Assembly (NCBI RefSeq): GCF_000017845.1
Contig: NC_010546.1
Location: 1,890,001 to 1,922,000 of the forward strand
DNA: 32,000 nucleotides
Reading direction: 5' to 3'
Source of the DNA: Crocosphaera subtropica ATCC 51142
Lineage (GTDB): Bacteria > Cyanobacteriota > Cyanobacteriia > Cyanobacteriales > Microcystaceae
Under the pieces are notes generated by a model. That model was not told the DNA's origin, searched no databases, and worked only from the letters and a program-made list of their open reading frames with translations. The translations under genes and the position numbers were made by a program. Shown piece after piece: positions 5,846 through 32,000 of the stretch. How positions within the stretch are numbered: the stretch's first letter is position 1; the number at the start of each line of letters is the position of its first letter.

Positions 5846-6580
5846 ATGGACACATTACAAACCCACTGGCAAAAAACTAGAGTCAGTCTTTTAGGAGTTT
5901 TACTCTTAGGACTTTTAGGCGTTCTTACTTATAAAATTATTGTCCTAAAAGAAACTGAACAAAGTGAACAAAGTAATGATAACACTGAAACTGTAACAAT
6001 TCCTGACACGGTTCCCCTATCTAATTGGAACTTAATTGACACTAAACCCTTAAACTCCGTGAAAACGGAGGAGGAAGTAACACCAGTTCTAGGGAAAGTT
6101 TATGAATATACGAACAACCAAGAGAGTCTAACCGCAGAAATTCGTTACGCAAAATATAGCGGTAGTTTTAATCACTTTTTGATCAAAGAGATGGGAATGC
6201 CAGCAGCTACCATTAATCCTGATATTTATTATGAGAAAGGAGTGGGACATTATGCTCTGTTTGAATACGAAAATACAACCTATTTAGGGTCATGTATTAA
6301 TGCTAAAGGAGAGGCCACTGTCACATTAGATCAGTATAATAAAAATCGCTATTTACGGGGTTGGGGAGTCACCAGAACTTTTTTATGGTTAATCGGAGAA
6401 CAAGATTTAGTTGAATATCGTTGTTTATGGAGTGTCATGTCTATCCCCAATTCATCAGAATTAGACTTTACTATTAATATCGATCCCAACAATAAAGAAC
6501 TCAATGAAGTTGAGAAAAACCTAGAACAAGCTTGGTTACATTGGTATTCTTGGTGGAAAAATAACTTTCCTGATTATTAA
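5846..6580 (+). CDS. Cyanoexosortase system-associated protein (single N-terminal TM anchor, periplasmic domain)
   Basis: It lies 34 nt downstream of the exosortase on the same strand. It has an N-terminal TM segment (VSLLGVLLLGLLGVLTYKIIVL). Adjacency to a cyanoexosortase is the conserved context of this family. I recognised no catalytic motif. Confidence 0.5.
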   Translation: MDTLQTHWQKTRVSLLGVLLLGLLGVLTYKIIVLKETEQSEQSNDNTETVTIPDTVPLSNWNLIDTKPLNSVKTEEEVTPVLGKVYEYTNNQESLTAEIRYAKYSGSFNHFLIKEMGMPAATINPDIYYEKGVGHYALFEYENTTYLGSCINAKGEATVTLDQYNKNRYLRGWGVTRTFLWLIGEQDLVEYRCLWSVMSIPNSSELDFTINIDPNNKELNEVEKNLEQAWLHWYSWWKNNFPDY

Positions 6581-9843: not shown

Positions 9844-11106
9844 ATGTTAGCCACATCTTCTTATCACGATATTGATAACCATGATTCTTCTCCAGTTCGG
9901 CCTGTTACAGAGACAGACTCAGACACAGAAAGTAACGAGATCACTAGCGAGTTAGGGGATGATTTGCTTGAACTAGAATTACAAAGCATAGACTTCACAG
10001 AAACCGATCCCTCAACTAATCGAGTGACTACGGATTTAGTCCGTTTATATCTTCAAGATATTGGTCGGGTTCCCTTATTAAAAAAAGAAGAAGAAGTTAG
10101 TAAATCTAAACAAGTTCAACGCTATGTTGAATTACTAGATATCAGAAACCAAGCAGCAGAAGCAGATGATCCGATCATGGGTCAATTTGTTAAAGTTCAC
10201 AGTATTCATGATCAATTAATGGCCTATTTAGGTCATCGTCCCTCCTGGGAAAAATGGGCAAAAGCCAGTGAAGTTTCAGTATTTGAATTAAAAGAAATTT
10301 TAGCCCAAGGAAAACAACAATGGGCTACTTTAGCTAATATTGATATTCAGGAATTAGAGGAAATTCAAAAGTCAGGAATCCGATCCAAAGATGAAATGAT
10401 TAAAGCTAATTTACGTCTGGTGGTTTCTGTGGCTAAAAAGTATCAACATCGAGGGTTAGAATTACTAGATTTAATCCAAGAAGGAACCCTCGGATTAGAA
10501 AAAGCCGTTGAAAAATTTGATCCCATTAAAGGATATCGTTTTTCTACCTATGCTTATTGGTGGATTCGTCAAGGAATTACTAGGGCGATCGCTACTCAAA
10601 GTCGTATTATTCGTCTTCCTGTTCATGTGACAGAAAAACTCAATAAAATTAAACAAGTTCAACGACAAATTTCCCAAGCAAAAGGTCGCAATGCTACCCT
10701 AGAAGAAATTGGTAAAGAACTGAACATGACACCGACACAGGTTCGAGAGGTGTTCATGAAAATTCCCCGTTCGGTTTCTTTAGAAATTAAAGTTGGCAAA
10801 GAAAAAGATACAGAATTAGTGGATTTATTAGAGTCAGAAGATATTTCTCCAGAAGAAAATTTAGCCATTGAATCTTTGCGTCGAGATATCGGGATTTTAT
10901 TAGAAGACTTAACGGAAAGAGAACAGGAAGTCATAAAATTACGGTATGGGTTTGAAGATGGGGTTTCTTATTCTTTAGCTGATATTGGCCGAACCTTAGA
11001 TTTATCAAGAGAACGAGTTCGCCAAATCGAAGCTAAAGCTTTACAAAAGTTACGTCAACCTCGAAGACGGAACCAAATTCGAGATTATTTTGAAAGTTTG
11101 ACTTAA
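9844..11106 (+). CDS. RNA polymerase sigma-70 family factor, group 2 type
   Basis: Region 1.2 DLVRLYLQDIGRVPLL, region 2 ANLRLVVSVAKKY / DLIQEGTLGLEKAVEKFD / YAYWWIRQGITRAI, and region 4.2 TLDLSRERVRQIEAKALQKLR. There is an acidic N-terminal extension. Confidence 0.9.
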   Translation: MLATSSYHDIDNHDSSPVRPVTETDSDTESNEITSELGDDLLELELQSIDFTETDPSTNRVTTDLVRLYLQDIGRVPLLKKEEEVSKSKQVQRYVELLDIRNQAAEADDPIMGQFVKVHSIHDQLMAYLGHRPSWEKWAKASEVSVFELKEILAQGKQQWATLANIDIQELEEIQKSGIRSKDEMIKANLRLVVSVAKKYQHRGLELLDLIQEGTLGLEKAVEKFDPIKGYRFSTYAYWWIRQGITRAIATQSRIIRLPVHVTEKLNKIKQVQRQISQAKGRNATLEEIGKELNMTPTQVREVFMKIPRSVSLEIKVGKEKDTELVDLLESEDISPEENLAIESLRRDIGILLEDLTEREQEVIKLRYGFEDGVSYSLADIGRTLDLSRERVRQIEAKALQKLRQPRRRNQIRDYFESLT

Positions 11107-19134: not shown

Positions 19135-21333
19135 TCATTGTTTAGCATATCTTTGCAATAATTGAGAAATTTCTGGGTTATAAATTCGGAGATAATTCCA
19201 ATAATTACCAAACACAGATTCTACATAACCTTTTGTTTCTCCAAAGGGTATTTTTTCCACAAACACATCAGGATCACTGACTCGATATCGTTTAACCCAT
19301 TTTGACACATTACCCGGTCCTGCGTTATAACTGGCAATGGCCAATAACGAATTATTACTATATTCAGAATGGGTATAATTTAAGTACCAAGTTCCTAAAT
19401 TAATATTGTCATTGGGATTGGTTAAAGAATAATCTTTTAAATTAATTTTATTAGCTACCCATTCCCCTGTTGCTGGCATCACCTGCATTAATCCTGTTGC
19501 CCCAACCGGTGACTTAATTTCAGGTTCAAAACGGGATTCTTGGCGCATTAACGAAGTGACTAATAGAGGATTTAATTGACGACGTTGAGTCCATTCAATG
19601 ATGTTATCGTAGAAAGGAAAAGGGAACAAAGCGTGCCAATATTTGTCCGTTTGTCTGAGTTGTTGCCATTCTTTTTCTTGTTCAGGATCATCTTTATTCT
19701 GAAGATACCAAACTTGATTAATCCCTTGAAGATTTTTCCCTTGAACTAACTTTAATAGCGCATCCGTAAACCCTTCATTGACGCTTAAGGTTTGGCGATC
19801 GCCCATTTCTGCTTGGAATAAGGTAATAGCATCCTCATCCTGTCCCAAACGGTACAACTCCTTAAACATTTCTGAACCCGCCGGGGGAAGGGGTCGGGTG
19901 TCAGGTTTATTCACCTGGGGCAATATTTGACGAACATTGTTAAAATTCCCCACATTCCACCCTAACTGTACGGCTGATCGCCAAGCATAGTAAGATTCAG
20001 GATGACGGGCAACGACGTGTTCAAAAGCTGCTTGAGCATCTTCTATTCTGCCTAACTGCTGCGCCCATTTTCCTACCCAAAAGGCTGCTTTCGGGGCGAT
20101 AGAACTCTCAGGGTTATTGGTGGTGATGGGTTGGGCCCAAGTCCAAGCTTTTAGTGCGTCTCCTGTTTCGGCTGCGTCTTGGGCCACTTGCCAACGATAT
20201 TCCGCCGTTGCATCAGACTTAGAATATTTGGATAAAAGGGTTTGACGTACCTTTGCTGCTTCTGCCTTTCGATTCAACTTATCGAGCAACGCAGCCTTAT
20301 CTAGAAGGGCTTCTGGAGCCTGTTCGGGGAATTTTTGGATAATTTCATCAAGATAAGTAATGGCGGTCTGTGGTGGGGATAATTGAGCCAGTCGTTTTAA
20401 AGCTAGGGCTGTTTCTTCGGCTTTCGGAAAGCCAAACATTAACTGGCGATAAGCAGCGATCACCGTTTCTTTATTATCCCCTGGGGGTTGGACTTGTTGC
20501 CCCCTAGCGATGCGGTAATAATTTTGGGGGCTTTTGTCCGCTTGTTGATAAGCCATGGCCGCTTTGTAGAACTCATTGACTTCCCAGTAACCGTCTGCGA
20601 TCCGTTGCCAGTCTTCGGGGGTGAGTTGATCGGCATAGTCATTCACTAAGCGATCGCGGATACTATTGGTGTTAGGGTCGTAGGGGGCATATTTGGCCAA
20701 CAACAATAATAATTCGGGTTGTTTTGGATTTTCTTTTAACCGTTCACGGATTACCTTTTGAATACTGGGATGTTGAGGAAATGTTTCGATGCCTTGATCC
20801 CAATAACTAGCATCGTATTTTCCTAACTCATACAAGGCTTCTGCTGAGGCCAAAGAGTCGGGATAGGTTTCTATCAGTTCTTGCCAGGTTTCTTGGGCTA
20901 ATGCCGTGTCATTGGTTAATTCGTAGCCTCGGCCTCGTTTGAGGAGAATATAGGGGACAAGGGTAGGATATTCTTTTTCTAACCCTTCGAGTTGTCTTAA
21001 TGCCGGGCCTCCTTCATACTCTTTAAGGAGATCGTTAGCCAATAGATAACGGGCCCGACTTCTTTCGAGGGAGAGGGTTTCAGAAGAAGCGATCGCTTGA
21101 AGTTGTTCTCGTCGTTGTTGGGCAGGAACTTCAGCTAATGTGAAGACAACGGAGGGTTTGTTAAGATCCTCTTTTAGCGTTGTTTCGATTTTAGCCTGTT
21201 GTCTTTGTTCGAGCCATTCTACCATTCTTGGAGTTAGAACCAGGGTACTAATGGCACCAGCTAAGAGTATACTAGAAGCAATAATCAGAGGACGTTTCTG
21301 TTTTAGTGGCTTAAGCATTCCATTCCCGCACAC
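19135..21333 (-). CDS. Soluble lytic murein transglycosylase (Slt70-like; superhelical N-domain plus SLT catalytic domain)
   Basis: C-terminal SLT motifs LMRQESRFEP (catalytic Glu), GATGLMQVMP and AIASYNAGPGNV. There is a long TPR/alpha-superhelical N-terminal region and a signal-anchor LIIASSILLAGAISTLVL. The start may be the internal MLKPLKQ (21318). Confidence 0.85.
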   Translation of the reverse strand: MCGNGMLKPLKQKRPLIIASSILLAGAISTLVLTPRMVEWLEQRQQAKIETTLKEDLNKPSVVFTLAEVPAQQRREQLQAIASSETLSLERSRARYLLANDLLKEYEGGPALRQLEGLEKEYPTLVPYILLKRGRGYELTNDTALAQETWQELIETYPDSLASAEALYELGKYDASYWDQGIETFPQHPSIQKVIRERLKENPKQPELLLLLAKYAPYDPNTNSIRDRLVNDYADQLTPEDWQRIADGYWEVNEFYKAAMAYQQADKSPQNYYRIARGQQVQPPGDNKETVIAAYRQLMFGFPKAEETALALKRLAQLSPPQTAITYLDEIIQKFPEQAPEALLDKAALLDKLNRKAEAAKVRQTLLSKYSKSDATAEYRWQVAQDAAETGDALKAWTWAQPITTNNPESSIAPKAAFWVGKWAQQLGRIEDAQAAFEHVVARHPESYYAWRSAVQLGWNVGNFNNVRQILPQVNKPDTRPLPPAGSEMFKELYRLGQDEDAITLFQAEMGDRQTLSVNEGFTDALLKLVQGKNLQGINQVWYLQNKDDPEQEKEWQQLRQTDKYWHALFPFPFYDNIIEWTQRRQLNPLLVTSLMRQESRFEPEIKSPVGATGLMQVMPATGEWVANKINLKDYSLTNPNDNINLGTWYLNYTHSEYSNNSLLAIASYNAGPGNVSKWVKRYRVSDPDVFVEKIPFGETKGYVESVFGNYWNYLRIYNPEISQLLQRYAKQ

Positions 21334-21365
21334 AACAATTTAAAGATACATTATACCTTCAAGTT

Positions 21366-21782
21366 TCATCTAGGTACGTTGGGATATAATCGATCAATTT
21401 CTTGCTGTTGAAGTAATCGTTGATCGATGAGAGCATCTTGTTGGTTCATGGTTTCAATACGCTCAAGGTACTGACCGCAGTTAGCATCAATAGGTGGGGG
21501 AGGGGTGGTAATAGTGCGCTCTAAACAAGCTCTTTCGGTGCGTTCCCGATGAAAATGTTGCAAAATCTTTTCAGGGGTCTGAAAATACAGTTGACGGTTA
21601 TGGCGCATATTTTCACGGTGAATTTCAGCATCGCAGTCCACTGCCGAAGGAATACATTGTCTGGGTGGAACAGAAATATTCGGGCCAATATTACGCAGTT
21701 GTGCGTTAGTTTTCACGGGGACGATTAAACTCAGTCCTGTTGTCACCAAGAATATCCAACCCAGAGGAGAATTAAGTTTCAT
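21366..21782 (-). CDS. Hypothetical secreted protein (signal peptide, 4 Cys, PPPP linker)
   Basis: Track ORF 21366-21803. I prefer the ATG at 21782 (MKLNSPLGWIFLVTTGLSLIVPVKTNAQ), which is preceded by GGAG 8 nt upstream. No recognisable domain. Confidence 0.55.
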   Translation of the reverse strand: MKLNSPLGWIFLVTTGLSLIVPVKTNAQLRNIGPNISVPPRQCIPSAVDCDAEIHRENMRHNRQLYFQTPEKILQHFHRERTERACLERTITTPPPPIDANCGQYLERIETMNQQDALIDQRLLQQQEIDRLYPNVPR

Positions 21783-21918
21783 AGCATTAGCTCCTAACGT
21801 CAAAGATTAATCACAAAAATAATTGAGATTACTTCTGTATTAATTCATGACTTTAATTTTATCAAGGTTAGAAAATCGATTTAGTTAATCGAGTGTCCTT
21901 TTTTTACTTTGGCATTAG

Positions 21919-22461
21919 TTATTTTTTGTTTCTTCGAGAACGACGTTTTTTAGGCTTTTTTTGAGACTGTTTAAAATGACTAACCCAATAATCGCTCAGA
22001 CTATGACTCATAGCTCCCAATTCTAAGCCAATAAAGGTAACAATGGCTTCCCCTAAATATTGATTTTTTAGTGTATTAAAGTTATATTCGGCAACATTTC
22101 GCCAATTCCAGGGAAATCCCCAAATGAATTGGGCGATGGCTACAACAAAAATGGCTACAATGACAATAATACTAAAAAGATAGATAACTCGGATCACCGT
22201 TCCTACAATCAACCCATGTGAAAAAAAAGAACGATGTTTAAAACAAGATTGATAAGGCAGCCAAATCCAGCGTATCATGCCCCAACGTTTGTATTGTAGG
22301 GAATAAATATCCAAATCAGGACCAAACATCAATCCACTGAATAAATAAGCCCCACTCAACCATAATAGCCATTCTCCCCGACCCGTGAGGAGATAAGCGA
22401 TGACAGCTAAGGGAGGTAAACTCAGGTAAGTAATGCGATCGTGAGTACGGCCAGAAGGCAT
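21919..22461 (-). CDS. Membrane metal-binding protein family (DUF2227-like)
   Basis: The N-terminus MPSGRTHDRIT is followed by several TM helices, SHGL and SHSLSD His motifs, and a basic tail KKPKKRRSRRNKK. This resembles the small cyanobacterial family annotated as metal-binding protein. Recognised from memory only. Confidence 0.5.
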   Translation of the reverse strand: MPSGRTHDRITYLSLPPLAVIAYLLTGRGEWLLWLSGAYLFSGLMFGPDLDIYSLQYKRWGMIRWIWLPYQSCFKHRSFFSHGLIVGTVIRVIYLFSIIVIVAIFVVAIAQFIWGFPWNWRNVAEYNFNTLKNQYLGEAIVTFIGLELGAMSHSLSDYWVSHFKQSQKKPKKRRSRRNKK

Positions 22462-22540
22462 AATCTAAATAGGGTTGAATCCTTGTACTCTTAGACGGTT
22501 CCCTGTTCTGAAGTTTCCTGAAAAAAGAATAAAAAAGGTG

Positions 22541-22568
22541 TTGCGTTTTCTGCTAGATATGTTATGAT
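22541..22568 (+). promoter_or_regulatory. Candidate sigma-70 promoter of tRNA-Val
   Basis: TTGCGT (22541-22546), a 16-nt spacer, then TATGAT (22563-22568). It lies 16 nt upstream of the tRNA 5' end. Confidence 0.4.
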
Positions 22569-22584
22569 AGCAAAGCATGAGTAA

Positions 22585-22656
22585 GGGCGATTAGCTCAGC
22601 GGTAGAGCTCCTGCCTTACAAGCAGGCTGTCACTGGTTCAAATCCAGTATCGCCCA
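22585..22656 (+). tRNA. trnV: tRNA-Val (anticodon UAC), no encoded CCA
   Basis: The cloverleaf folds by hand. Acceptor GGGCGAT/ATCGCCC; D arm GCTC-AGCGGTA-GAGC; anticodon arm CCTGC-CTTACAA-GCAGG; variable CTGTC; T arm ACTGG-TTCAAAT-CCAGT; discriminator A. Confidence 0.95.
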
Positions 22657-22657
22657 T
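22612..22657 (+). repeat. attL core (inside the intact tRNA-Val)
   Basis: TGCCTTACAAGCAGGCTGTCACTGGTTCAAATCCAGTATCGCCCAT, identical to 28892-28937. Confidence 0.9.
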
Positions 22658-22751
22658 TGTTTTGCGTGACCATAAAGAGTGTCATGACCCTTAAATTATT
22701 ACATATTTTGATGTATAGCTGTTTATCTATAGTTTCACCATGCAATGATAG

Positions 22752-22787
22752 ACAAAAATAAATCCCTCTACCGGTCAAGGTAAAGGG
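22752..22787 (-). terminator. Candidate intrinsic terminator of the prim-pol/helicase gene
   Basis: On the minus strand: CCCTTTACC-TTGACC-GGTAGAGGG (9-bp stem, one mismatch) followed by ATTTATTTTTG. It lies 14 nt after the stop at 22801. Confidence 0.4.
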
Positions 22788-22800
22788 TTCTAGTCTGTAT

Positions 22801-25800
22801 TTAAGAAAATGAGGGCTTGGTATCTTTCAAAAATTGGAAGTCTGATAACGGTTGATTTTTTTGATGGCCATCCTCATGAATGGCGATCGCAAAAACTTCT
22901 TTTCCCTTCTGATATTCGTACTGTATTTTGTACCATTCTCCTGTAGGAAGATGTAGTACACTCCATCCTTGGTGTGTTAAATCTATGGCGTGTTGGTTCA
23001 TTTGTTCTGTTGACGTTTTTGTAGCAAGAAAACTTTTCTTACTCCCTTCTCCTGTAGTATGTCCGTAACCCATTTCGGTAAGGTCATCAAACATTTTTCG
23101 GATGTCAGCCATCGAATAAGACTTAAAAACTCGACTTGCCATTTTTACGTCTCTAGCCTTAATTTCCCCTTTCTTCAAAGAAAAGTCATAGATTTTCTTT
23201 AACTCAGGGGTCAAATCCCCAGTGACCTCTAAAATGTCCTGATAGATAAGGTCAAATTGGTTTTGGTATATCTTTATGAGTTCGATAGCCTTTTCTAGAT
23301 GCTTACGAGATATCACATACCGTTCTAACTCTATTGGTTTAAATGCCTTTTCTATCGCCTCATCAATCATCTTTTTGAACTCATCAAGGGATAACCTTGT
23401 TGCTGTTATTCCTTTGATGTAAGCAGTATCGATTAAGGACAAAATTAAGGCAATATCCCCCACAAAAGCAGTGTGTTTAGAGAATATCTTACTCTTATAC
23501 GTTCCCTCTCCCTTAACCTTCTCTTCTTGGCAATATTCAAACCATTCCCTGTAAAGTTCTTTAGCATCGGGACTTAATTCGGCTCTATAAGCAGGTAAAG
23601 CTATTAAGTTGAGGTAAATACCTTTAAGTAAGGGATACAACCCAGAATCATAGTCATTTTCTGGAAATATGGCTTTTTTGGTGGGACGACAACACATTAA
23701 AAACCTTGCCCAATACCCGTTAGGATCAGACCCATCTCCCATTTGTTGCTTAAGGATATCGGGTTGAATCCCCCCTACGATGCTATAGGTTGACCGCAAA
23801 GCAAAAACGCTACTATCAACCCTTTCAGTGTGTGGAAAAGTACCGTCCCTTGCTTGCAGTAAGTTCTCAATATCACGTCCTTTTCCCCCTTTATACTGGT
23901 TTGCTCCCTTTAATAAGGCAGAAAGTTCGTCAAACTCCAAAAGAAACCCTCTATCTTGCTGTCTCGCTTGTAGTCTTACTAATGCCTCCCCAGTCGTATC
24001 ATTTACATAAAACCTTTGAGGATCGAATGGAGTGATAGGCTTTTCTTCCCTTTCTTCTGTAGGTGTCGCTTTCCATTGGTCTAGTGCTTCACTATAAAGT
24101 TGGGTTGACCGTTCCCACATTTCTTGTGCTGTTGCTTGGAACTCTTCAAGGGGCTTTTTCAGGGTCTTTAGGGTAGGGGACTTTGCACAACCACTTCCCC
24201 CTACAATCCCAGACCAGATGATAGGATGCCTCTTAAAGTCACTAGCCTTTATCAAAGTTAGATGAGTATTAGCATTAATTAGGGACGAAGCAATGGGTAG
24301 TAAACAGGTTAACAAACCCAGTTCAGTCGTACCCAAAATAGATGATATATTTTTGAGCTTGACAGCTAGTCCAGAAGGTATATAATGACCTAAATCTATA
24401 TCTTTGGTCTGAACCTGTAGTAAGTGGTCTAGCGTACGCTTGAGGTCTGGGAGTTGTTCTTTATACTCTGCCTCCTGTATCCACTGGGTATAAGTTGACT
24501 CAACCCATTGAACACGATGACCCACTAATTTAGCTAGACTACCTAATTCAAGAGTTAAAGCAGTACCCGTCAAGTTTGAGTTATAGAACTCTTCAAAGTA
24601 TTGAAGTAGGGACACTTTTAACTCTTCTGTGTCGATACTGTTTTTAGTAGTACCTTGAAAAACACTGGGTAGTAGCAGGTCACTACCAGTCAGATTGTAA
24701 AAAGCTTGCTTTAGGGCAGGTATGCCGAAAGCTCCTGTAGTAGAGTCGTTAACCTGCTCCCAGTCCCCTGTACCGTGGGGTAGTAACGGACTAAACAACT
24801 CTAGTGCTTTATTTTTATCTCCGAGTATATTGCCTGATGCTCCTAAAGCCACTCTATAGGAATCATAGGTATTTGTCCCTGCTACTCTTGTAGGTAGATT
24901 GGTGACTACATATCTGATTAGTTCTAAACAGTTTTCTTCCCCATACTTCTTAATGTAGTCAATGGTACTGGTTGAGGAGATACTACTAGATTCCCATACC
25001 TTACATTTATTTGTAATAGTATGTTTTGGTAGGGTCTTTCCTAGTCCTGTAACTATACTCTCAAGGTTATTTTTTAACTCTTCAAAGGTAGGGAATTTTC
25101 TTTTTATTTCCTTCCCTAAAGGGTTTAGAGAAGTCTCAGGAGAAAGGTATAGTAAGGCTTGCTCTTTTTCTTTGTCCTTACGATAAAAACTAGGAACCCT
25201 CATTTGTTGAACTACATTATTACAAGGTTTAGGGTCAACATATCCGTCATAGATAGCCATCAACAAAGACATCAAATAAGCCCAATCATGCTTATTAATT
25301 GAATGACTTAATTTAATGGTTGTATGGTAGGATTTATTACCTGAATGATGGACTGCTAAACCTTTCCAGGGATAGTCTTTTATGAATGCTTTTAAAAGAG
25401 ATTCTTGTTCTGTTTGGGTTCCTTTGTCGAACTCTATTTGAAGGACATCAGTTTGCTTGAAACGGTCTGATGTAGGTGTAAAAGGAACTTGAGAAGGAAT
25501 CCAAGTGACCCCTTTTGTTCCTGGTTTCTCTGACAATTCTCTGATGTATTCATAGGCTAAATGGTATCCCCCAACTTCTTTCCTAGTCTCTTTCTTCCCT
25601 TTTTCTTCCTTCTGAGTAAGAATAACCTTTAAACTGAGTGGATCACCGTCATAGGTTCCTTTGTAGAACTCAGGGGCTTTACCCTCGTACTGAACAATAA
25701 ACCAGATATTTTGTGGAGGCGAATAGGTATCTGTAAGAGTGAAAAAGGTTTTAGCAAAAGCTTCAAAAGCATCCTTTTTTGTTAGGATATCTTGTCCTAA

Positions 25801-25866
25801 ACCATTACTTGCTATAGTAGAATTAAGCAAGTCGAAACCATTACTTGCATGGCTATTGTTTCGCAT
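22801..25866 (-). CDS. Replication protein: N-terminal archaeo-eukaryotic primase (prim-pol) domain fused to a DUF3987/SF3-like P-loop helicase domain
   Basis: AEP motifs: acidic LQIEFD, HHSGNKSYHTTI (sGxxxH), and VDPKPCNNVVQQMRVPSFYRK (D...R-x-P-[GS]). The P-loop is GIVGGSGCAKSPTL (Ala replaces the usual Gly before Lys). The Walker B-like motif is FLLEFDELSALL. Length 1021 aa. Confidence 0.7.
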   Translation of the reverse strand: MRNNSHASNGFDLLNSTIASNGLGQDILTKKDAFEAFAKTFFTLTDTYSPPQNIWFIVQYEGKAPEFYKGTYDGDPLSLKVILTQKEEKGKKETRKEVGGYHLAYEYIRELSEKPGTKGVTWIPSQVPFTPTSDRFKQTDVLQIEFDKGTQTEQESLLKAFIKDYPWKGLAVHHSGNKSYHTTIKLSHSINKHDWAYLMSLLMAIYDGYVDPKPCNNVVQQMRVPSFYRKDKEKEQALLYLSPETSLNPLGKEIKRKFPTFEELKNNLESIVTGLGKTLPKHTITNKCKVWESSSISSTSTIDYIKKYGEENCLELIRYVVTNLPTRVAGTNTYDSYRVALGASGNILGDKNKALELFSPLLPHGTGDWEQVNDSTTGAFGIPALKQAFYNLTGSDLLLPSVFQGTTKNSIDTEELKVSLLQYFEEFYNSNLTGTALTLELGSLAKLVGHRVQWVESTYTQWIQEAEYKEQLPDLKRTLDHLLQVQTKDIDLGHYIPSGLAVKLKNISSILGTTELGLLTCLLPIASSLINANTHLTLIKASDFKRHPIIWSGIVGGSGCAKSPTLKTLKKPLEEFQATAQEMWERSTQLYSEALDQWKATPTEEREEKPITPFDPQRFYVNDTTGEALVRLQARQQDRGFLLEFDELSALLKGANQYKGGKGRDIENLLQARDGTFPHTERVDSSVFALRSTYSIVGGIQPDILKQQMGDGSDPNGYWARFLMCCRPTKKAIFPENDYDSGLYPLLKGIYLNLIALPAYRAELSPDAKELYREWFEYCQEEKVKGEGTYKSKIFSKHTAFVGDIALILSLIDTAYIKGITATRLSLDEFKKMIDEAIEKAFKPIELERYVISRKHLEKAIELIKIYQNQFDLIYQDILEVTGDLTPELKKIYDFSLKKGEIKARDVKMASRVFKSYSMADIRKMFDDLTEMGYGHTTGEGSKKSFLATKTSTEQMNQHAIDLTHQGWSVLHLPTGEWYKIQYEYQKGKEVFAIAIHEDGHQKNQPLSDFQFLKDTKPSFS
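24428..24443. repeat. Island palindrome copy 4 (15/16), inside the prim-pol/helicase CDS
   Basis: TCTAGCGTACGCTTGA versus the consensus TCTAGCGTACGCTAGA. Confidence 0.7.
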
Positions 25867-25897
25867 GATATTCTTTTAAAAAATTAAGTTTTTTCTA

Positions 25898-25933
25898 GAA
25901 CCTTGTAGGATGTGTAAAGACCCTTCAAGGTTC
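25898..25933. promoter_or_regulatory. Inverted repeat GAACCTTG-N20-CAAGGTTC upstream of the prim-pol/helicase start
   Basis: Perfect 8-bp arms at 25898-25905 and 25926-25933, 32-67 nt upstream of the start codon at 25866. The function is unknown (operator, leader hairpin or origin element). Confidence 0.25.
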
Positions 25934-26111
25934 GATTTTAAACTATACCTTAGAGGTTTTGTGACGACAACTCGCATAAATAAGTAAAAGCCCCGAAAAA
26001 CATCTTTAAATTGATGAATTCAAGGGCTTTGAGGGTATATACTTTATTTATTAGATTTTTTCTCTACTTAGCGGAGTTATCCCACTAAGTAATCCTCTGA
26101 TCACAAGGGTT

Positions 26112-26516
26112 CTATTTCTTGTTTTCAGGGGGTTTTCCGTTGCTTGAAGACTCTAGAAGTCTTCTTATTTCTTTTAGTTCTAATTCCATTTCTTCCTGTT
26201 TTCTTATGGAATGAGCTAAAGCATTATGCACTGATTGTTCGACTTCAAATTGCTTGGTTAGTAGAAACTCCATTTTTCCTTCTCCGATATTAATTCCCTT
26301 GGCATGGTGGATCACGGTTCGCCCCGTAGTGGATAAATTAGGTAAACCCTCTTTGAACTCTTTTCCATCATGAAGCAGGTCGATGACCTTGCAAATAATC
26401 AGTCTAGCGACAGTAGCTCTAGTATTTCCCATTCTTTCAGCAAGTTCTATTAACTTGTCGTTGTAGTCATCGTCTAATTGGACATTAAACCTTGTCGTTG
26501 TTAGTTCCTTAGCCAT
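26112..26516 (-). CDS. Ribbon-helix-helix (CopG/Arc/MetJ-type) DNA-binding protein with a C-terminal coiled coil
   Basis: The N-terminus TRFNVQLDDDYNDKLIELAERMGNTRATVARLIICKVIDLL fits the beta-strand / helix A / G-x-[ST]-R turn / helix B pattern. The start overlaps the upstream stop as ATGGCTAA. Confidence 0.65.
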   Translation of the reverse strand: MAKELTTTRFNVQLDDDYNDKLIELAERMGNTRATVARLIICKVIDLLHDGKEFKEGLPNLSTTGRTVIHHAKGINIGEGKMEFLLTKQFEVEQSVHNALAHSIRKQEEMELELKEIRRLLESSSNGKPPENKK

Positions 26517-26805
26517 TAGTTTTATGCTCCTCTGAGAGTGTTTTTATCATGTTTTGGGACTCAAGCCCTTTAACCATCAAATCAAGGCTCATAGACCCTG
26601 ATTTCTTCCTACGCTTTGTTTTTTCAGCTAGTTCCTGTAAGTCATCCTTCCTGATAACGATAAACTCTTCATTGTCATCTAGCATTTTGGCCACTGCGAT
26701 TAGAAAAGTAATAAATTTATCAGGAACCCTGACAGGTCTGCTTGGCTGTGTTTTCCATTTTGGTTTTTGAGGGTTTAGGTTCTTAATTTGTATCTCTGTA
26801 GGCAT
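26509..26805 (-). CDS. Hypothetical basic protein (98 aa), first gene of the leftward operon
   Basis: Track ORF 26509-26844. The first 13 codons merely translate the 16-bp palindrome, so I prefer the ATG at 26805 (MPTEIQIKNL). It overlaps the RHH gene by 8 nt, consistent with translational coupling. Confidence 0.5.
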   Translation of the reverse strand: MPTEIQIKNLNPQKPKWKTQPSRPVRVPDKFITFLIAVAKMLDDNEEFIVIRKDDLQELAEKTKRRKKSGSMSLDLMVKGLESQNMIKTLSEEHKTNG

Positions 26806-26811
26806 CTTCCC

Positions 26812-26827
26812 TCTAGCGTACGCTAGA
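26812..26827. repeat. Island palindrome copy 1 (16/16)
   Basis: TCTAGCGTACGCTAGA, perfectly self-complementary, 7 nt upstream of the ATG at 26805. Confidence 0.9.
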
Positions 26828-26876
26828 AATGTAGGGGTAAACAAGCACCAATTTTAGGTATATTATAGGGATGTTG

Positions 26877-26892
26877 TCAAGCGTACGCTAGA
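26877..26892. repeat. Island palindrome copy 2 (15/16)
   Basis: TCAAGCGTACGCTAGA, 8 nt upstream of the ATG at 26901. Confidence 0.85.
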
Positions 26893-26900
26893 GATTAATC

Positions 26901-27251
26901 ATGGTTTCTCTTCCTAAAAAACAGTCTGAGACAAAAAAACTAAAGAAGCTTCCTAGAGGACAATATTTCGTAAAAGACTTTAACCCAGAAACTAAAGAGG
27001 CCATTGTCCAAAACTATGTAGGAGAGTATTTTGGACAGAGCATCATAGAAACCATACCAGTTAGGATCAATACTAATATCCCTCGGTGCTGTACCGTAGC
27101 AGGGGTTTTAATTGCTTCGGATGGGCAAGGAAGTGTCTGTGATCGCATAACTATTCCTAGGGACTCCTACGGTGATCCCGTTCCTTTCCTTCATATTGAA
27201 AGGGTTGTGTCGGTTCGCTTTTACTCTGAGGTGGCATCAGACCTACAATAA
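26901..27251 (+). CDS. Hypothetical protein (116 aa), the only rightward gene of the element
   Basis: A complete ORF with an ATG start and a basic N-terminus KKQSETKKLKKLPRG. No recognisable domain. It is bracketed by palindrome copies 2 and 3. Confidence 0.5.
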   Translation: MVSLPKKQSETKKLKKLPRGQYFVKDFNPETKEAIVQNYVGEYFGQSIIETIPVRINTNIPRCCTVAGVLIASDGQGSVCDRITIPRDSYGDPVPFLHIERVVSVRFYSEVASDLQ

Positions 27252-27260
27252 ATCTGTTTT

Positions 27261-27276
27261 TCTAGCGTACGCTAGA
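27261..27276. repeat. Island palindrome copy 3 (16/16)
   Basis: TCTAGCGTACGCTAGA, 9 nt after the stop of the 116-aa gene. It overlaps the stop codon of the convergent 75-aa gene. Confidence 0.9.
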
Positions 27277-27499
27277 GCCGTGACCAATAAACCCAATAAG
27301 GAACAACCGCTTTTATGGGTATTGGTTTAACAGGAATATTATGGTCGGGGGGTAATACTGGTTTCGGGAACGGCAAACCCTGTAATGACGAGGCTTCTGA
27401 CGATTTTCCGTTGACAAATTCGTGAACGGAGCCAGACCTTTTTCCAATCGCATCAGCCACTTGAGTTTGACTCATCACATAGGAACCATCGGGTAGCAT
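27272..27499 (-). CDS. Small Cro/XRE-like helix-turn-helix protein (regulator or excisionase candidate)
   Basis: MSQTQVADAIGKRSGSVHEFVNGKS fits a helix-turn-helix of the XRE/Cro type. The C-terminal half is Pro-rich. It lies downstream of int on the same strand. The start is either 27499 or the internal Met at 27475. Confidence 0.45.
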   Translation of the reverse strand: MLPDGSYVMSQTQVADAIGKRSGSVHEFVNGKSSEASSLQGLPFPKPVLPPDHNIPVKPIPIKAVVPYWVYWSRL

Positions 27500-27646
27500 A
27501 AAAACTTCAAAGGGACATACCCAGGTATATGAGGTATGTTAGGACAGGTAGTGTACCAAGTACATTGTTTGTTGAGTTTACGATAAGGTAGTTTTGGCAT
27601 AGAGATACGACTCGGATATCTAAGGTCAAAGTAACTTTTTTGCTTG

Positions 27647-27675
27647 CACTGCAAAAAACACTGCTACTACACTGC
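27647..27675. repeat. Three phased CACTGC direct repeats between int and the HTH gene
   Basis: CACTGC occurs at 27647, 27659 and 27670 (spacing 12 and 11 nt). The repeats overlap an A/T hairpin, TTTTTTGC-N7-GCAAAAAA (27636-27658). Confidence 0.3.
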
Positions 27676-27680
27676 AATGC

Positions 27681-28835
27681 CTAGACAGGTTTAATAGTAC
27701 CCGTATCTCCCAGGTAATGTTTCTCTATCACCCTTACTGAGTTATCACACCACTTAGCTACTATGGCAGGGGGTATGCCCTGCTCTATCTGTTTAGTAAT
27801 AAAGGTGTCCCTGAGATTGTAGGGAGTGTAATCAGTAGTTGTCTTACTCCAATACCTACGTTTAAAATTAATATAATCTATAGGTTTACCTTCACGACTT
27901 AGGAATACTAAGTTCCAATGGTTATCTATGGGTAGTAGTTTGTTTAGTAGTTCCCTTAGCTTACCAGTCATGGGGAACTTTCTTATAGTTCCGTTCTTAC
28001 TGGTAGCTATAGTCACCCATTGCCCTTTAATCCTTTCAATACTAGAACCTAAAAGTATGTATTCATCGTGAATAGCATCCCATGTTAATCCTATAGCCTC
28101 CGAAGGTCTGCATCCTGTTAAAACCATAAATTCTACTAGATGCCCAAAAGGAGGGTGTGTTAGGTATAGGGCATCTAGTATAGCTTGTAGCTCTATATCG
28201 GGTATAGGTTTAATAGTAGTATGCGGATTCACTGTTGGTTTTTTCTTTTTTAATGCCTTAGTGATAGGGGCATAAGGGTTAGGTTCATTAGGGTATTCTT
28301 TAAATATGTACTTATAGATAGTGGACAATCTATTGATAACCCTTATAGTAACATCTAGTGTTGTTCCTCTTTTTATTATTTCGTAAACACTCTTAGCATT
28401 AGATATGGGTTGACTGCCTACCCTTTTAATATGTGGTTGTACTGTTGTCTCAAGATATTTGGTAGTAGTAGGCTTAACAAGGTCTTTAATATCCTTAAGA
28501 TATGACTCCCAAGCATCCCATACGGACACAAACCTTAGTTGATGCAACGCTTTTGTTTTTACCCTATTTTCTTTATCTAGGTGGGGTAGGTACTTAAGCA
28601 TAGTCGAGTCGTACCTATCAAAAAGATAATCACTTTCTATCTTGCTGATAATATCTCTTGCCCTAGCTCTACCATCTTCAGTATTAGGCAAGTTGAGTGA
28701 GTAATAACGTCTAGGGTTAGATTCAATTGTACTAGGTGTTTTTACATAGAGTCTATTCTTTAATTTATATAGTACAAAAGAACCTTTTTTTATGGGTCTA
28801 GAGTCTATTCTTTTGAACCTTTTGGTGACTACCAC
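27681..28835 (-). CDS. Tyrosine recombinase / phage-type integrase
   Basis: Catalytic-domain motifs: LTGCRPSEAIGLTW (Arg I), TSKNGTIRKFPM (Lys), YNLRDTF (Arg II) and VIEKHYLG (Tyr nucleophile). GTG start at 28835. It lies 56 nt from attR. Confidence 0.85.
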   Translation of the reverse strand: MVVTKRFKRIDSRPIKKGSFVLYKLKNRLYVKTPSTIESNPRRYYSLNLPNTEDGRARARDIISKIESDYLFDRYDSTMLKYLPHLDKENRVKTKALHQLRFVSVWDAWESYLKDIKDLVKPTTTKYLETTVQPHIKRVGSQPISNAKSVYEIIKRGTTLDVTIRVINRLSTIYKYIFKEYPNEPNPYAPITKALKKKKPTVNPHTTIKPIPDIELQAILDALYLTHPPFGHLVEFMVLTGCRPSEAIGLTWDAIHDEYILLGSSIERIKGQWVTIATSKNGTIRKFPMTGKLRELLNKLLPIDNHWNLVFLSREGKPIDYINFKRRYWSKTTTDYTPYNLRDTFITKQIEQGIPPAIVAKWCDNSVRVIEKHYLGDTGTIKPV

Positions 28836-28891
28836 TACCTTGAACCCCTATAATGTATGTGTACCGTCACATACACCCTTCTGTGAATCTG

Positions 28892-28937
28892 TGCCTTACA
28901 AGCAGGCTGTCACTGGTTCAAATCCAGTATCGCCCAT
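28892..28937 (+). repeat. attR core (duplicated 3' portion of tRNA-Val)
   Basis: Identical to 22612-22657. The sequence upstream of 28892 diverges from the tRNA 5' half, so this copy is not a functional tRNA. Confidence 0.9.
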
Positions 28938-28999
28938 AAAAAAGCAAAAAAGTCGATTAATAGTTACTAGAAATAATGATTAAGTCAGGGTTTCTTTTA

Positions 29000-29046
29000 A
29001 TTAATACCTAAATGACTAATTTAAGGTATTAATCTAGGCTTTTTTC
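29000..29046 (+). terminator. Possible original tRNA-Val terminator, displaced by the insertion
   Basis: ATTAATACCT (29000-29009) pairs with AGGTATTAAT (29024-29033). A T6 run lies at 29040-29045, but it is 6 nt from the stem, which is atypical. Confidence 0.3.
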
Positions 29047-29069
29047 CATAGATGGCAATACAAAATCAT

Positions 29070-31523
29070 TTACTTAAAATAAGCTAACGTTACCCCAGAT
29101 CCTCCTTCTTTTTGAGAAGCTAACTCAAACCTGTGAATCTGAGGATGACCTTTCAAAAACTCATGAACCCCTTGACGCAACTTGCCAGTTCCTTTACCGT
29201 GAATGATCCATAATACCCCTGACTCGGTAGCTTGGGCGATCGCATTTTCTAAATCAGCTTCTGCTTCTGCTACTCGACTTCCCCGAATATCAATGGTGTT
29301 TCGAGAGGTGCGAATAGCTGGAACATCTTTGGGTTTAGAGGGTTGCGGTGGCGGTGTAATCGGTTGTTTTTTCTCTTTTACCTTAGTTTCTACCTTTTGG
29401 CCGTCTAAGGACTCAATATCCTTAAAAGAAACGGTCATTTTCATCAGTCCAAACCGAACCATTACCTCTTCATCTTCGGGAGAAACCGCCAACACTTCGG
29501 CAGTTTGTCCTAAGTTAGAGAGGCGAATTTTCTCTCCAACTTGAGGTTGATAACTAACCTTGGGTTTCGCTTTTTTGGGTAGCTGACGTTGACTAATATT
29601 AGTAATTGCTTCTGTTGCTTGTTGCGCTTTTTGACTGCTTTTTTTGCCTTTTTGTAAACTACGAATGACTTGGGCGATCTCTTCTTTCGCTTCGGCGATC
29701 GCTTTTTGGACTTCTTGTTCTTGATACCGTTTTAAGTCTTGTTCCCTTTGTTGCAAAGCAGTAGCTTTTTCTGAGACTTCAGTATAAAACTTCTCCGTTT
29801 CTTGCAACAATTTTTGAGCTTCTTGGGCTTTTTCTTCCTGTTCTCTACGTTGTGCTTCTAACCCGGCAATCACATCATTAACGTCCTGAGATAGTCCCCC
29901 AATGCGAGTTTTAGCCTCATCAATAATATCTACATCTAACCCCAAACGCTGAGCAATACTCAGGGCATTAGACCGCCCCGGAATGCCCCACAACAGCCGA
30001 TAAGTAGGGGAAAGGGTGCGATCATCGAATTCTACCGAAGCGTTCTCAAAACGCGAATCTTCGTATTTCAGGGCTTTTAATTCTCCGTAGTGGGTAGTCG
30101 CAATGGTTAACTGTGCGTGATCGGCTAAATGGTGCAATAAGGCGATGGCCAAGGCACTTCCTTCGGCCGGATCGGTTCCTGCGCCCACTTCGTCGAGGAG
30201 TATTAGGGATGGGTGTGGGGTGTGGGGTGTTTCAGATAAAACTGTTTTCTGTTCCCCTCCCCCATTAGTAAGGGGAGGATCACCTGTTCCCTCCAACGCT
30301 TCTAAAATACGAACAATGCGACGAATATGACCGGAAAAGGTGGATAAATTTTGTTCGATGGACTGTTCGTCGCCAATATCAGCTAAAATTTGCTCAAACC
30401 AAGGGAGTTCTACGGGTTCTTTGGCCGGCACAAATAAGCCAACTTTGGCCATCAACGCAGCTAACCCCACGGTTTTGAGGGTAACGGTTTTTCCGCCAGT
30501 GTTAGGGCCTGTGATAGCAATTACCCGAATATCTGGATTAATCTGTACATTGATAGGAACTACAGGTGATCCTTGTTCGTGTCTTTCTTGCCAAACTAAT
30601 AAGGGATGGTGTAACTGTCTGAGGGTGATAGTTTCTGTGTCTTCTATAAATCTGGGGGCGTTTCCGCCTAACCAAAAGCTATAGCGGGCCCTAGCGGTAG
30701 CTAAGTCAAGAACAGTGGCGATGGCGAGTAAATACTCTAAATCTTCGGCTACCTCGGCTACTTGTTCGGTCAAGCTGCGTAAAATGGCTTCTTCTTCTCT
30801 TTCTTCTTGTCGCAAGTATTGACGGCGTTTATTGCCCATCTGTACAACGGAGTTGGGTTCGATGTAAAAGGTTCCCCCTGTGCCGGATGTATCGTGAATA
30901 ATTCCTGGAATTTGCTCTTTTTGCCCTGCTTTGACGGGAAGGACAAAGCGATCGCCCCGTTGAGTAATCACGGTTTCTTGGATCGCTCCTCCTTTTTGCT
31001 GCATAATATTTTGCAGTTTCTCATAGATGCGATCCCGAATCTCCTTCAGATTATGACGGATTTCTCCTAGTTTGGGACTGGCGCGATCGGCGACTTTTCC
31101 AGCTTCATCGATGCAGTGATGAATAGCTTTTTCCAGTTCGGGATAGGTCCGAATATCAGCTACTAAGTCGGTTAAAACGGGTAAGTCTTCACAATCATCA
31201 ATAATTCTCCTTAATCGTCGCATTCCTGCCAAAGTTGTGGCAATGTTTAGCAGTTCCTGTCCTGAGAGGTTACCCTTTAAGGTTGCTCTTGTGAGGGAAT
31301 CTCCCACATCGGTTATTCCTTCAAAAGTCCATTTTATTTCTAAATTCTGCTCTAAACCGTAAATTTCTTGAGTTTGGGCTAAAAGTTCTTTACTTTCTTG
31401 CAAACTGGTCGGAATCGGTAAGTTACGGGCTGCTGTTGCACCCATTTTTGTGGCTGCAAAGGTGGCTAACTGCTGGCAAAGGCGATGCCATTCTAATAAG
31501 TTTAAAGTTTCTTTGTAAATCAC
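29070..31523 (-). CDS. mutS2: Endonuclease MutS2 (MutS domain plus C-terminal Smr domain)
   Basis: Walker A GPNTGGKTVTLKT, Walker B LILLDEVGAGTDPAEG, a coiled-coil linker, and a C-terminal Smr domain IDIRGSRVAEAEADLE...LWIIHGKGTGKLRQGVHEFL. GTG start. Confidence 0.95.
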   Translation of the reverse strand: MIYKETLNLLEWHRLCQQLATFAATKMGATAARNLPIPTSLQESKELLAQTQEIYGLEQNLEIKWTFEGITDVGDSLTRATLKGNLSGQELLNIATTLAGMRRLRRIIDDCEDLPVLTDLVADIRTYPELEKAIHHCIDEAGKVADRASPKLGEIRHNLKEIRDRIYEKLQNIMQQKGGAIQETVITQRGDRFVLPVKAGQKEQIPGIIHDTSGTGGTFYIEPNSVVQMGNKRRQYLRQEEREEEAILRSLTEQVAEVAEDLEYLLAIATVLDLATARARYSFWLGGNAPRFIEDTETITLRQLHHPLLVWQERHEQGSPVVPINVQINPDIRVIAITGPNTGGKTVTLKTVGLAALMAKVGLFVPAKEPVELPWFEQILADIGDEQSIEQNLSTFSGHIRRIVRILEALEGTGDPPLTNGGGEQKTVLSETPHTPHPSLILLDEVGAGTDPAEGSALAIALLHHLADHAQLTIATTHYGELKALKYEDSRFENASVEFDDRTLSPTYRLLWGIPGRSNALSIAQRLGLDVDIIDEAKTRIGGLSQDVNDVIAGLEAQRREQEEKAQEAQKLLQETEKFYTEVSEKATALQQREQDLKRYQEQEVQKAIAEAKEEIAQVIRSLQKGKKSSQKAQQATEAITNISQRQLPKKAKPKVSYQPQVGEKIRLSNLGQTAEVLAVSPEDEEVMVRFGLMKMTVSFKDIESLDGQKVETKVKEKKQPITPPPQPSKPKDVPAIRTSRNTIDIRGSRVAEAEADLENAIAQATESGVLWIIHGKGTGKLRQGVHEFLKGHPQIHRFELASQKEGGSGVTLAYFK

Positions 31524-31694: not shown

Positions 31695-32000
31695 CTATTG
31701 AAACTTTTTACTAGCATTTTCAAAGGAGGTTTGTAGGTCTTGCCAAGCTAACTCAAATCCAGTTTGAATGTCTTTCCAAGCATCCTCCCCTGCTTGTTGC
31801 AGTTCCTTTAATTTATCAAAGGCCTCATCTCTTTTTGTGGTTAATTCTTCAATTTGATTCTGATATTGAATTTCTGTATCAGCTTTTGCTTGTCTAGCTT
31901 TGGCTTTCAGTTCATCAATTTGAGCGTTTAACTTATCTAATTCAGCTTTAACTCTTTCTTGATAAGCTTGTTTACTTAAGTTGGTAGGTGTTTGAGTAGT
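31695..32000 (-). CDS. Coiled-coil hypothetical protein, C-terminal fragment (the gene continues past the right edge)
   Basis: Reverse-strand frame open over 101 codons: ...TNLSKQAYQERVKAELDKLNAQIDELKAKARQAKADTEIQYQNQIEELTTKRDEAFDKLKELQQAGEDAWKDIQTGFELAWQDLQTSFENASKKFQ*. Heptad-rich. It is absent from the track because it is truncated. Confidence 0.6.
   Translation of the reverse strand, partial: TTQTPTNLSKQAYQERVKAELDKLNAQIDELKAKARQAKADTEIQYQNQIEELTTKRDEAFDKLKELQQAGEDAWKDIQTGFELAWQDLQTSFENASKKFQ

Follow-up and report, generated by a model that had tools for sequence, protein, structure and literature searches.

The stretch of DNA analysed here, hereafter the window, comprises 32,000 nucleotides (nt) of contig NC_010546.1 of Crocosphaera subtropica (formerly Cyanothece sp.) ATCC 51142 and carries a 6.3-kb element integrated in a tRNA-Val gene. 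The genes of this element correspond to cce_1882 to cce_1887 (exact-sequence look-up). An intact tRNA-Val(UAC) gene (22585–22656, + strand; anticodon tac; Rfam RF00005, 73.6 bits) was the sole tRNA found by ARAGORN in the window. Its last 45 nt (tRNA positions 28–72) and one flanking base form a 46-nt core that extends from the anticodon stem to one base beyond the tRNA (attL, 22612–22657, + strand). This core recurs exactly, at a spacing of 6280 bp, as a displaced 3′ fragment of tRNA-Val (attR, 28892–28937, + strand), in which ARAGORN called no tRNA gene. The pair is the longest direct repeat within 21000–30500, and the 6,280-bp unit that it defines consists of 6,234 bp of unique DNA and one 46-bp core. 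Williams, writing in Nucleic Acids Research in 2002, is said to have found an identity block from the anticodon stem to the tRNA 3′ end to be usual for integrases that cross over in the anticodon loop. An earlier note on this DNA, made without database searches, had described the same tRNA and repeat; ARAGORN, Rfam and a repeat search bore this out, and the observation of a tRNA-integrated element of this size holds.

The rep gene (cce_1882; 22801–25866, − strand) encodes a protein of 1021 amino acids (aa) and is followed, just past its stop codon, by a terminator-like hairpin and T run (22764–22787, − strand). Pfam recognised only DUF3987 in Rep (PF13148; aa 522–876, E = 2e-35), and the N-terminal domain had no Pfam match at E ≤ 0.1. 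An exhaustive HMMER search retrieved 7,798 relatives, nearly all of which align from approximately aa 420 onward, i.e., with the helicase half; a word-index search with Rep returned nothing, and scans of genome, viral and metagenome contig collections with Rep itself found no relative. At the sequence level, only three of the 150 best relatives match the N-terminus, and an iterative search over these 150 ties it to approximately 30 N-terminal domains with common motifs (E-h-D, S-G-G-K-S-x-H, D and R-x-M-R-x-x-G). In the corresponding alignment (A1), E145, D147, S179, D211 and R223 of Rep are invariant and H181 is near-invariant. Rep thereby carries motifs I (hhhDhD/E), II (sxH) and III (hD/E) of the archaeo-eukaryotic primases (AEPs) together with the conserved arginine motif, the latter being what defines the PrimPol-PV1 supergroup (PMC5862659).

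Structural models led to the same domain assignment. The AlphaFold (AF2) model of aa 1–420 reached a pLDDT of roughly 80 over aa 30–280, and all PDB matches found by Foldseek at E ≤ 0.01 were AEP primases (RepB′, CAPP, S-2L PrimPol and LigD). The top match was RSF1010 RepB′ (E = 1.6e-5, probability 1.0, TM 0.66 on target); the CAPP match is a CRISPR-associated Prim-Pol, the PrimPol of cyanophage S-2L gave a TM of 0.68, and the pRN1 primase matched more weakly, at rank 19. By fold and motifs, the AEP domain extends over aa ~48–280 (window ~25027–25725, − strand) and is followed by a PriCT-like helical region (aa ~313–400); in some relatives, PriCT_2 or PriCT_1 lies directly after the AEP-type domain. 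From Pfam and the model, a DUF3987 MCM-like AAA+ helicase occupies aa ~420–950 (window ~23017–24609, − strand), with a Walker A-like GGSGCAKS at aa 556, a probable Walker B in the invariant D646-E647 of LLEFDELS, and a small C-terminal domain beyond it. The invariant K143 and D227-E228 of a second alignment (A3) correspond to K562, the Walker A-like lysine, and to D646-E647 of Rep. The model of aa 420–1021 (pLDDT 85, pTM 0.79) matched eukaryotic and archaeal MCM helicases at a probability of 1.0. A PriCT–DUF3987 protein has been described as a 5′–3′ helicase dependent on Walker A and B, with DUF3987 placed in superfamily 6 (PMC11724360), and the MCM-like fold of the Rep C-terminus fits this placement. 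The fold and motif evidence therefore supports the reading of Rep as a primase-polymerase/helicase fusion, as had been proposed from the sequence.

At the opposite end of the element, int (cce_1887; 27681–28835, − strand) encodes a tyrosine integrase of 384 aa (PF00589, E = 1e-11; phrog_1, E = 1e-30) that faces inward from the attR end and lies 56 nt from the distal repeat, in agreement with the integrase that the earlier note had placed against this repeat. The protein is full length in comparison with its homologues (372–388 aa). In an alignment of int with 15 relatives, R243, K280, R342 and Y374 (the nucleophile) do not vary, and W362 is almost invariant. The usual first catalytic His is a Tyr (Y339; motif Y339-x-x-R342) in all 16 aligned members, which indicates a lineage trait rather than a lesion. 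A 15-nt direct repeat, TAGAGTCTATTCTTT, lies at the 5′ end of int (28747–28813; copies at 28747 and 28799) and represents candidate arm-type or autoregulatory sites. We also observed GAACCTTTT at 28780 and 28815, which, like both copies of TAGAGTCTATTCTTT, falls inside the first ~30 codons of int. No arm-type repeat of at least 9 nt is common to both ends of the element.

The small genes are arranged around a divergent control region. The leftward operon is headed by an orphan open reading frame (ORF) without a family match (26509–26844, − strand; 111 aa from a TTG start, or 98 aa from the ATG at 26805 in RefSeq), which overlaps the start of cce_1883 by 8 nt. The latter gene (26112–26516, − strand; 134 aa), 245 nt upstream of rep, encodes a ribbon-helix-helix (RHH)-like regulator with weak matches to RHH_1 (E = 0.015), TraY (E = 0.016) and a RelB-like family (E = 0.002), and is named 'CopG family transcriptional regulator' in RefSeq; the position of the RHH gene announced before rep was thus correct, while its identity is weakly indicated. 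In the rightward direction, cce_1884 (26901–27251, + strand; 116 aa) is a true orphan that has no family match and found nothing but itself in a collection of 5.8 billion protein sequences, so that both of the orphans noted earlier remained orphans. The ORF previously called a Cro-like helix-turn-helix (HTH) gene, cce_1885 (27272–27499, − strand; 75 aa), is present; the HTH label derives solely from a match to phrog_6223 ('transcriptional repressor', E = 0.007), with no Pfam match even at E ≤ 1, and this gene is best regarded as a weak repressor-like candidate. Pfam searches of the small ORFs at E ≤ 1 returned nothing useful.

A 16-bp palindrome, TCTAGCGTACGCTAGA, occurs in four copies at ≤1 mismatch in the window, all of them within the element (0.00 expected). 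Two copies (26812–26827 and 26877–26892) delimit the control region (26812–26892), where they bracket the 56-bp gap between the divergent operons, a leftward promoter (TTGACA-18-TAAAAT, 26880–26851), whose −35 box is overlapped by one copy, and weaker rightward promoter-like sites. The divergent promoter region with palindromes reported earlier was thus recovered, with two of the four copies flanking or overlapping it; their role as operators would follow from this arrangement. A third, perfect copy (27261–27276) lies between the converging ends of cce_1884 and cce_1885. The remaining copy (TCTAGCGTACGCTTGA, one mismatch; 24428–24443) lies inside rep, 41 nt after the −10 box of a candidate antisense or regulatory promoter (24359–24386, + strand), whose TTGACA-N16-TATAAT is the sole perfect sigma-70 consensus in the window (0.02 expected). 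The antisense transcript predicted from this promoter is not unusually structured (z = −0.11). This layout leads us to infer a dimeric regulator acting on both operons and perhaps on an antisense transcript, the CopG-like cce_1883 being the leading candidate for the palindrome-binding protein and cce_1885 the alternative. A CopG-type repressor paired with an antisense RNA is a classic plasmid copy-control scheme, e.g., in pMV158, and this analogy is offered here as a lead only.

Apart from the tRNA, Rfam identified nothing in the element. Searches with Pfam, PHROGs, NCBIfam and PADLOC found no capsid, terminase, relaxase, type IV secretion system, transposase or defence gene inside or beside the repeats; this agrees with the gene content given in the earlier note, and no capsid or transfer gene pointed to a larger element extending beyond the repeats. 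Among the element ORFs, no terS, cargo or interference gene was recognised with NCBIfam, PADLOC, Pfam and PHROGs, nor was a cos or pac signal. The composition of the interior is foreign rather than host-like: its dinucleotide distance to the flanks is 131, compared with 25–65 for flank windows of the same size, and it contains one HIP1 site where approximately 4.4 were predicted from the flank density. This foreign composition argues against an old, ameliorated remnant. A collection of ~15 billion proteins contained no close relative of the element at 90% identity, and no paper naming cce_1882–1887 was found in the literature. The flanking genes on both sides are ordinary chromosomal genes. 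The insertion lies between a DUF2227 gene and mutS2, the right neighbour; the other left neighbours encode an SLT-TPR lytic transglycosylase, a PAS histidine kinase, a GGDEF/EAL protein, a JAB protein, an MFS transporter and a sigma-70 factor.

The relatives of Rep are found mainly in plasmid settings. A tblastn search of 72,556 plasmids yielded 49 records, all matching the helicase half only, and the organisms named in the output were cyanobacteria. In pOSC7112.05 of Oscillatoria nigro-viridis (7.6 kb), the DUF3987 protein is the sole large gene, while pCYAN10605.01 of Cyanobacterium aponinum encodes a recombinase, small ORFs, a DUF3987 protein and ParA/ParB. Both of these DUF3987 proteins have a zinc-finger and Toprim N-terminus and no AEP domain, and the primase module ahead of a common helicase has been exchanged. 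In the set of cyanobacterial plasmid proteins and closest relatives that was compared (P0103, L009 and L010), the DUF3987 helicase was observed with three N-termini, namely Pfam Prim-Pol with PriCT_2, a Pfam-invisible AEP type as in the Rep of the element, and zinc-finger with Toprim. The primase module is thus interchangeable. The nearest full-length homologue of Rep (P0135) lies beside ParA with a 53-aa NikA-like RHH gene immediately upstream, which echoes the cce_1883–rep pair. The relatives closest in the helicase half are on short Crocosphaera contigs and adjoin a recombinase or ParB. Phage matches to Rep were limited to three weak ones. The earlier note had suggested looking for the element in viromes, where IMG/VR gave no match to Rep peptide patterns and its nearest integrase relative was 34% identical. 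Assignment of Rep to CyRepA/CyRepX, the cyanobacterial Reps with experimental characterisation, was rejected, as these proteins have different domains (DUF3854 and DEXDc; PMC10079941, PMC10899382).

Two integrated siblings were found in metagenomes. One is a 10.43-kb element on a 10.66-kb contig (L077), inserted in tRNA-Val(CAC), and its AEP–DUF3987 Rep (P0224) is among the three proteins that match the Rep N-terminus directly. An exact 49-nt repeat of the 3′ part of the tRNA (91–139 and 10520–10568, 10,429 bp apart) encloses the tyrosine integrase, small ORFs, Rep and further small ORFs in this order from the tRNA; the design agrees with that of the window element except that int adjoins the intact tRNA, the opposite layout. 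An iteron-like cluster (TGTTGGCTAA...AGCCAACA) follows rep in this sibling (6483–6770), and a repeat near both of its ends, TGGCCGGAAAAATTGGCCGGAAGG, looks like arm-type integrase sites. The other sibling, on a Tara Oceans scaffold (L100, 6391–17567), measures 11.1 kb and is inserted in tRNA-Arg(CCG), with a repeat of 51 nt; a P4-type integrase is encoded beside the tRNA fragment, and its other genes include those for a DUF3987 protein of 505 aa that stands alone, for a zinc-ribbon protein and for a DUF5681 protein. The remaining 24 metagenome loci mostly showed no tRNA and no integrase of this family; the profile used is family-specific, and many contigs are short. Flanking by an integrase and tRNA repeats, for which the earlier note had proposed a test, was seen at two loci and not at most of the others.

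The integration module has different affinities. The search recovered 96 integrase relatives, and the named sources are cyanobacteria of filamentous or other unicellular form (Nostoc, Calothrix, Thermosynechococcus, Gloeothece and similar genera), with no picocyanobacteria among them. The nearest integrases (48–40% identical) are on contigs of 20.5–21.7 kb (L001, 1–16356; L002; and L003, 1–11868) with more than 20 small ORFs that have no Pfam match on record and a collagen-repeat protein; PHROGs searches of ten larger ORFs of L001 were uninformative except for one family of unknown function (E = 0.0018). In L001 and L002, int is preceded at ~80 nt by a 33-nt, 97% identical copy of the tRNA-Val 3′ half, oriented relative to int as in the window, and the full tRNA is not present, which represents an attP-like arrangement. 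A location of int beside the displaced tRNA fragment thus characterises this lineage of integrases. The earlier note had correctly recognised this location and considered it unusual; it recurs in L001/L002 and in L100, with L077 showing the reverse. The element also shares part of a small accessory gene with these contigs, in addition to the integrase clade and the attP layout with a tRNA-Val fragment upstream of int: a 41-aa ORF downstream of int (27475–27600, − strand) is 50% identical over 28 aa (tblastx/tblastn, E = 3e-7) to one of their proteins. The ~21-kb contigs may represent an undescribed cyanobacterial integrative element or a small virus. Overall, the window element seems to be a mosaic that combines a replication module of plasmid type with an integration module derived from a larger, uncharacterised element.

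These findings support a minimal integrative element with its own primase-helicase replicase, a tRNA-Val-targeting integrase and small regulators, and the region is likely to be an intact, horizontally acquired, integrated plasmid-like element; the plasmid-like reading follows from the helicase relatives of Rep, which are mostly on plasmids or plasmid-like contigs. In the proposed mechanism, the tyrosine integrase would recombine the 46-bp attP core with the 3′ part of tRNA-Val(UAC). Since the element supplies a replacement 3′ half, the tRNA would stay intact at attL, and the displaced fragment would be left at attR, beside int. Once excised, the circular form would depend on its own Rep for replication, with the AEP primase(-polymerase) domain priming and the DUF3987 MCM-like helicase unwinding. 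Expression would be set by the dimeric regulator bound to the four palindromes, two of which are at the divergent promoters and one downstream of the strong antisense promoter inside rep. With no packaging or transfer genes of its own, the element would have to rely on a helper phage, vesicles or transformation to move between cells.

Several observations weigh against this interpretation. An empty attB was not found: in 12 other Crocosphaera species, tRNA-Val is not within 10 kb of mutS2, the left-flank genes of the window are likewise absent within this distance, and similarity to the window stops exactly at the mutS2 stop codon (29070). Adjacency of tRNA-Val and mutS2 may thus be confined to C. 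subtropica or be the product of a rearrangement. No sister-strain contig with an empty site was found, and the near-identical strain ATCC 51472 lists the same proteins, with no insertion polymorphism known; the vacant tRNA-Val site that the earlier note had proposed to look for in relatives was accordingly not recovered. No excisionase or AlpA-type protein was recognised (Pfam E ≤ 0.1; small ORFs to E ≤ 1), no origin of replication was identified in the element, and the 41-aa ORF, whose first ~28 aa correspond to the N-terminus of a protein of 84–86 aa in the ~21-kb elements, looks truncated and may be a decayed accessory gene. There was also no direct sign of excision or of a circular form in Logan contigs, which cannot resolve the 46-nt repeat. 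This repeat exceeds k = 31, so that attP and attB have no unique k-mers and such assemblies cannot decide excision. A 6,294-nt contig (L004) was rejected as a free circle, because it corresponds to window 28921–22628, i.e., the interior and 30 nt of each repeat; its breaks are those expected of a k = 31 assembly graph at a 46-nt repeat and are uninformative either way. Other Logan contigs span attR or end in the repeat. A seemingly novel junction in L006 (1801–1825) was discarded, its extra bases being Illumina adapter sequence (AGATCGGAAGAGCACACGTCTGAAC). In the comparison of mutS2 loci, window 31696–31982 matched twice in several relatives and window 1–206 matched a site ~9 kb upstream of mutS2 in two Crocosphaera assemblies; these stretches are probably short dispersed repeats.

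Some of these points would also be expected of an inert relic, a once-mobile element that is fixed in the chromosome and no longer excises or replicates: no excisionase was recognised, one accessory ORF looks truncated, the element is present in both sequenced near-identical strains (ATCC 51142 and ATCC 51472), and no free form is documented. Nevertheless, the two 46-nt repeats show 100% identity, rep (1021 aa) and int (384 aa) have their full length and conserved catalytic motifs, the composition is still strongly foreign, and the four palindromes are close to perfect. Long decay would not be expected to leave any of these features, and we consider a relic very unlikely. A helper-dependent phage satellite with a PICMI- or VEIME-like lifestyle would be repressed in the chromosome until a cyanophage triggered its excision, whereupon Rep would amplify it and concatemers would be packaged in helper capsids. 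The size and gene set resemble those of PICMI115 (6.1 kb, six genes including int and a DUF3987 'primase'; PMC10803314), and VEIMEs are another known related element type (PMC9618062). A control region of repressor-operator style in an element without its own transfer or packaging genes would fit this lifestyle, as would the DUF5681 gene beside int and DUF3987 in the marine relative L100. The int/attP module is nearest to the ~21-kb contigs, which could be small viruses; their uninformative PHROGs results, however, make a viral label a guess. Moreover, no AlpA/Xis homologue, terS, cos or pac signal, or interference gene was found, IMG/VR contained neither a match to the Rep peptide patterns nor a close integrase, and the nearest relatives of Rep are in plasmid or plasmid-like contexts rather than in phages, with which its three matches are weak. 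A satellite lifestyle is thus unlikely, and the more specific version, in which the element is a working satellite or helper-dependent hitcher of a diazotrophic unicellular cyanobacterium and the ~21-kb 'dark' elements are its helper virus or parent lineage, is decidedly a long shot. The integrated plasmid-like element remains the preferred interpretation.

Strain ATCC 51142 of Crocosphaera subtropica (Cyanothece) serves as a model of unicellular nitrogen fixation and is hard to manipulate genetically. A site-specific integration or shuttle-vector system could be developed from the native 46-bp attB, the cognate integrase and the compact replicon. The replicon family of the element is not known to have been used for cyanobacterial vectors, the characterised Reps CyRepA and CyRepX belonging elsewhere (PMC10079941, PMC10899382). 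The element further indicates that the minimal int and AEP/DUF3987 layout, known from Vibrio satellites and bacterial surveys, occurs also in non-picoplanktonic cyanobacteria, and that such elements are mosaics, with a helicase half akin to cyanobacterial plasmid proteins and an integration module akin to an uncharacterised ~21-kb element. If the element were a satellite with a ~21-kb helper, the two would form a satellite–helper pair outside the marine picocyanobacteria and the enterobacterial and Vibrio models, with a plasmid-type replicase. Unless it proves to be a satellite with an identifiable helper, the conceptual gain is small, since the kind of element is already known.

Comparison with known systems places the element more closely. 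The DUF3987 proteins of cyanobacterial plasmids have a homologous helicase half (27–33% identity over ~540 aa) and a small gene immediately upstream, and pCYAN10605.01 also has a recombinase gene nearby; they differ in the zinc-finger and Toprim N-terminus and in their location on free plasmids, one of which (pCYAN10605.01) also carries ParA/ParB. In archaeal pRN-family plasmids, a CopG-like RHH gene lies upstream of a Rep with prim-pol and helicase domains, and integrated copies are found in tRNA genes. The window element likewise is a small replicon with a putative CopG-like gene (of weak RHH match, as given above) upstream of a large prim-pol and helicase Rep. However, its host is bacterial, its helicase is DUF3987/MCM-like rather than of the pRN1 type, no relationship is seen at the sequence level, and the int gene is not split on integration, unlike in SSV-type elements, because the attP core lies 56 nt outside int; it is therefore not a pRN-type plasmid. 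It is not a P4-like satellite either, as it has only int and a non-homologous primase-helicase, with no match to psu, delta, sid, epsilon or alpA in PHROGs and Pfam.

The PICMI satellites of Vibrionaceae (int, AlpA and a DUF3987 'primase' in ~6 kb) are defined by an integrase (PF00589/PF00239/PF07508), AlpA (PF05930/PF12728) and a DUF3987 or DUF5906 primase (PMC10803314). They share with the window element the size of ~6 kb, approximately six genes, a tyrosine integrase and a DUF3987 'primase', short flanking direct repeats and the lack of capsid or packaging genes. In contrast, PICMIs require AlpA, are always downstream of fis in Vibrionaceae, and their phage induction has been shown experimentally, whereas the element described here, known from its sequence alone, is inserted in tRNA-Val of a cyanobacterium, is not at fis and has no PF05930/PF12728 match (E ≤ 0.1; small ORFs E ≤ 1). 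It does not belong to the PICMIs. The parallels that the earlier note drew to pRN plasmids, P4 and PICMIs thus stand as analogies and not as memberships, given that an AlpA match, a location beside fis, the psu/sid/delta genes and a split integrase gene are all missing. Tycheposons, described from marine picocyanobacteria (Prochlorococcus) and other marine bacteria, integrate at tRNA genes and carry an inward-facing integrase together with a primase/helicase module (bioRxiv 10.1101/2020.12.28.424599). In common with them, the window element has a cyanobacterial host, a site-specific integration in a tRNA gene that leaves a partial tRNA, and an inward-facing tyrosine recombinase at one end (int, attR) opposite the replication module at the other (rep, attL). 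The defining features of tycheposons are a recombinase clade specific to their lineage, common profiles of hallmark genes, and cargo or PICI-like modules, whereas the window element has no recognisable cargo, terS or capsid gene, and tRNA-Val is absent from the seven Prochlorococcus target genes listed.

The suggestion that no element of this kind had been characterised in cyanobacteria was overstated in view of the tycheposons, the DUF3987 primase of PICMIs (PMC10803314) and a survey of AEP primases that are fused to or paired with DUF3987 helicases and carried by mobile elements in tRNA genes (Kazlauskas et al. 2018, PMC5862659), to which the AgaPP/AgaPH element (PMC11724360) can be added. 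In this class of PrimPol-PV1 AEP and DUF3987 elements, as in the window, AEP motifs I–III and the arginine motif are followed by a PriCT-like region and DUF3987, a tyrosine integrase is present, insertion in a tRNA gene is accompanied by direct repeats, and the replicase is inferred to replicate the element itself. The window element shows the AEP motifs, the AEP fold, DUF3987 with Walker-type motifs and tRNA-gene integration that characterise the class. It differs in being far smaller than most described elements, in having no recognisable cargo (pAgo, conjugation or virion genes), and in an AEP domain that matches by sequence only a small cluster of the retrieved DUF3987 proteins. The element is therefore an unusually compact addition to the class of tRNA-integrating replicons with an integrase and an AEP/DUF3987 replicase.

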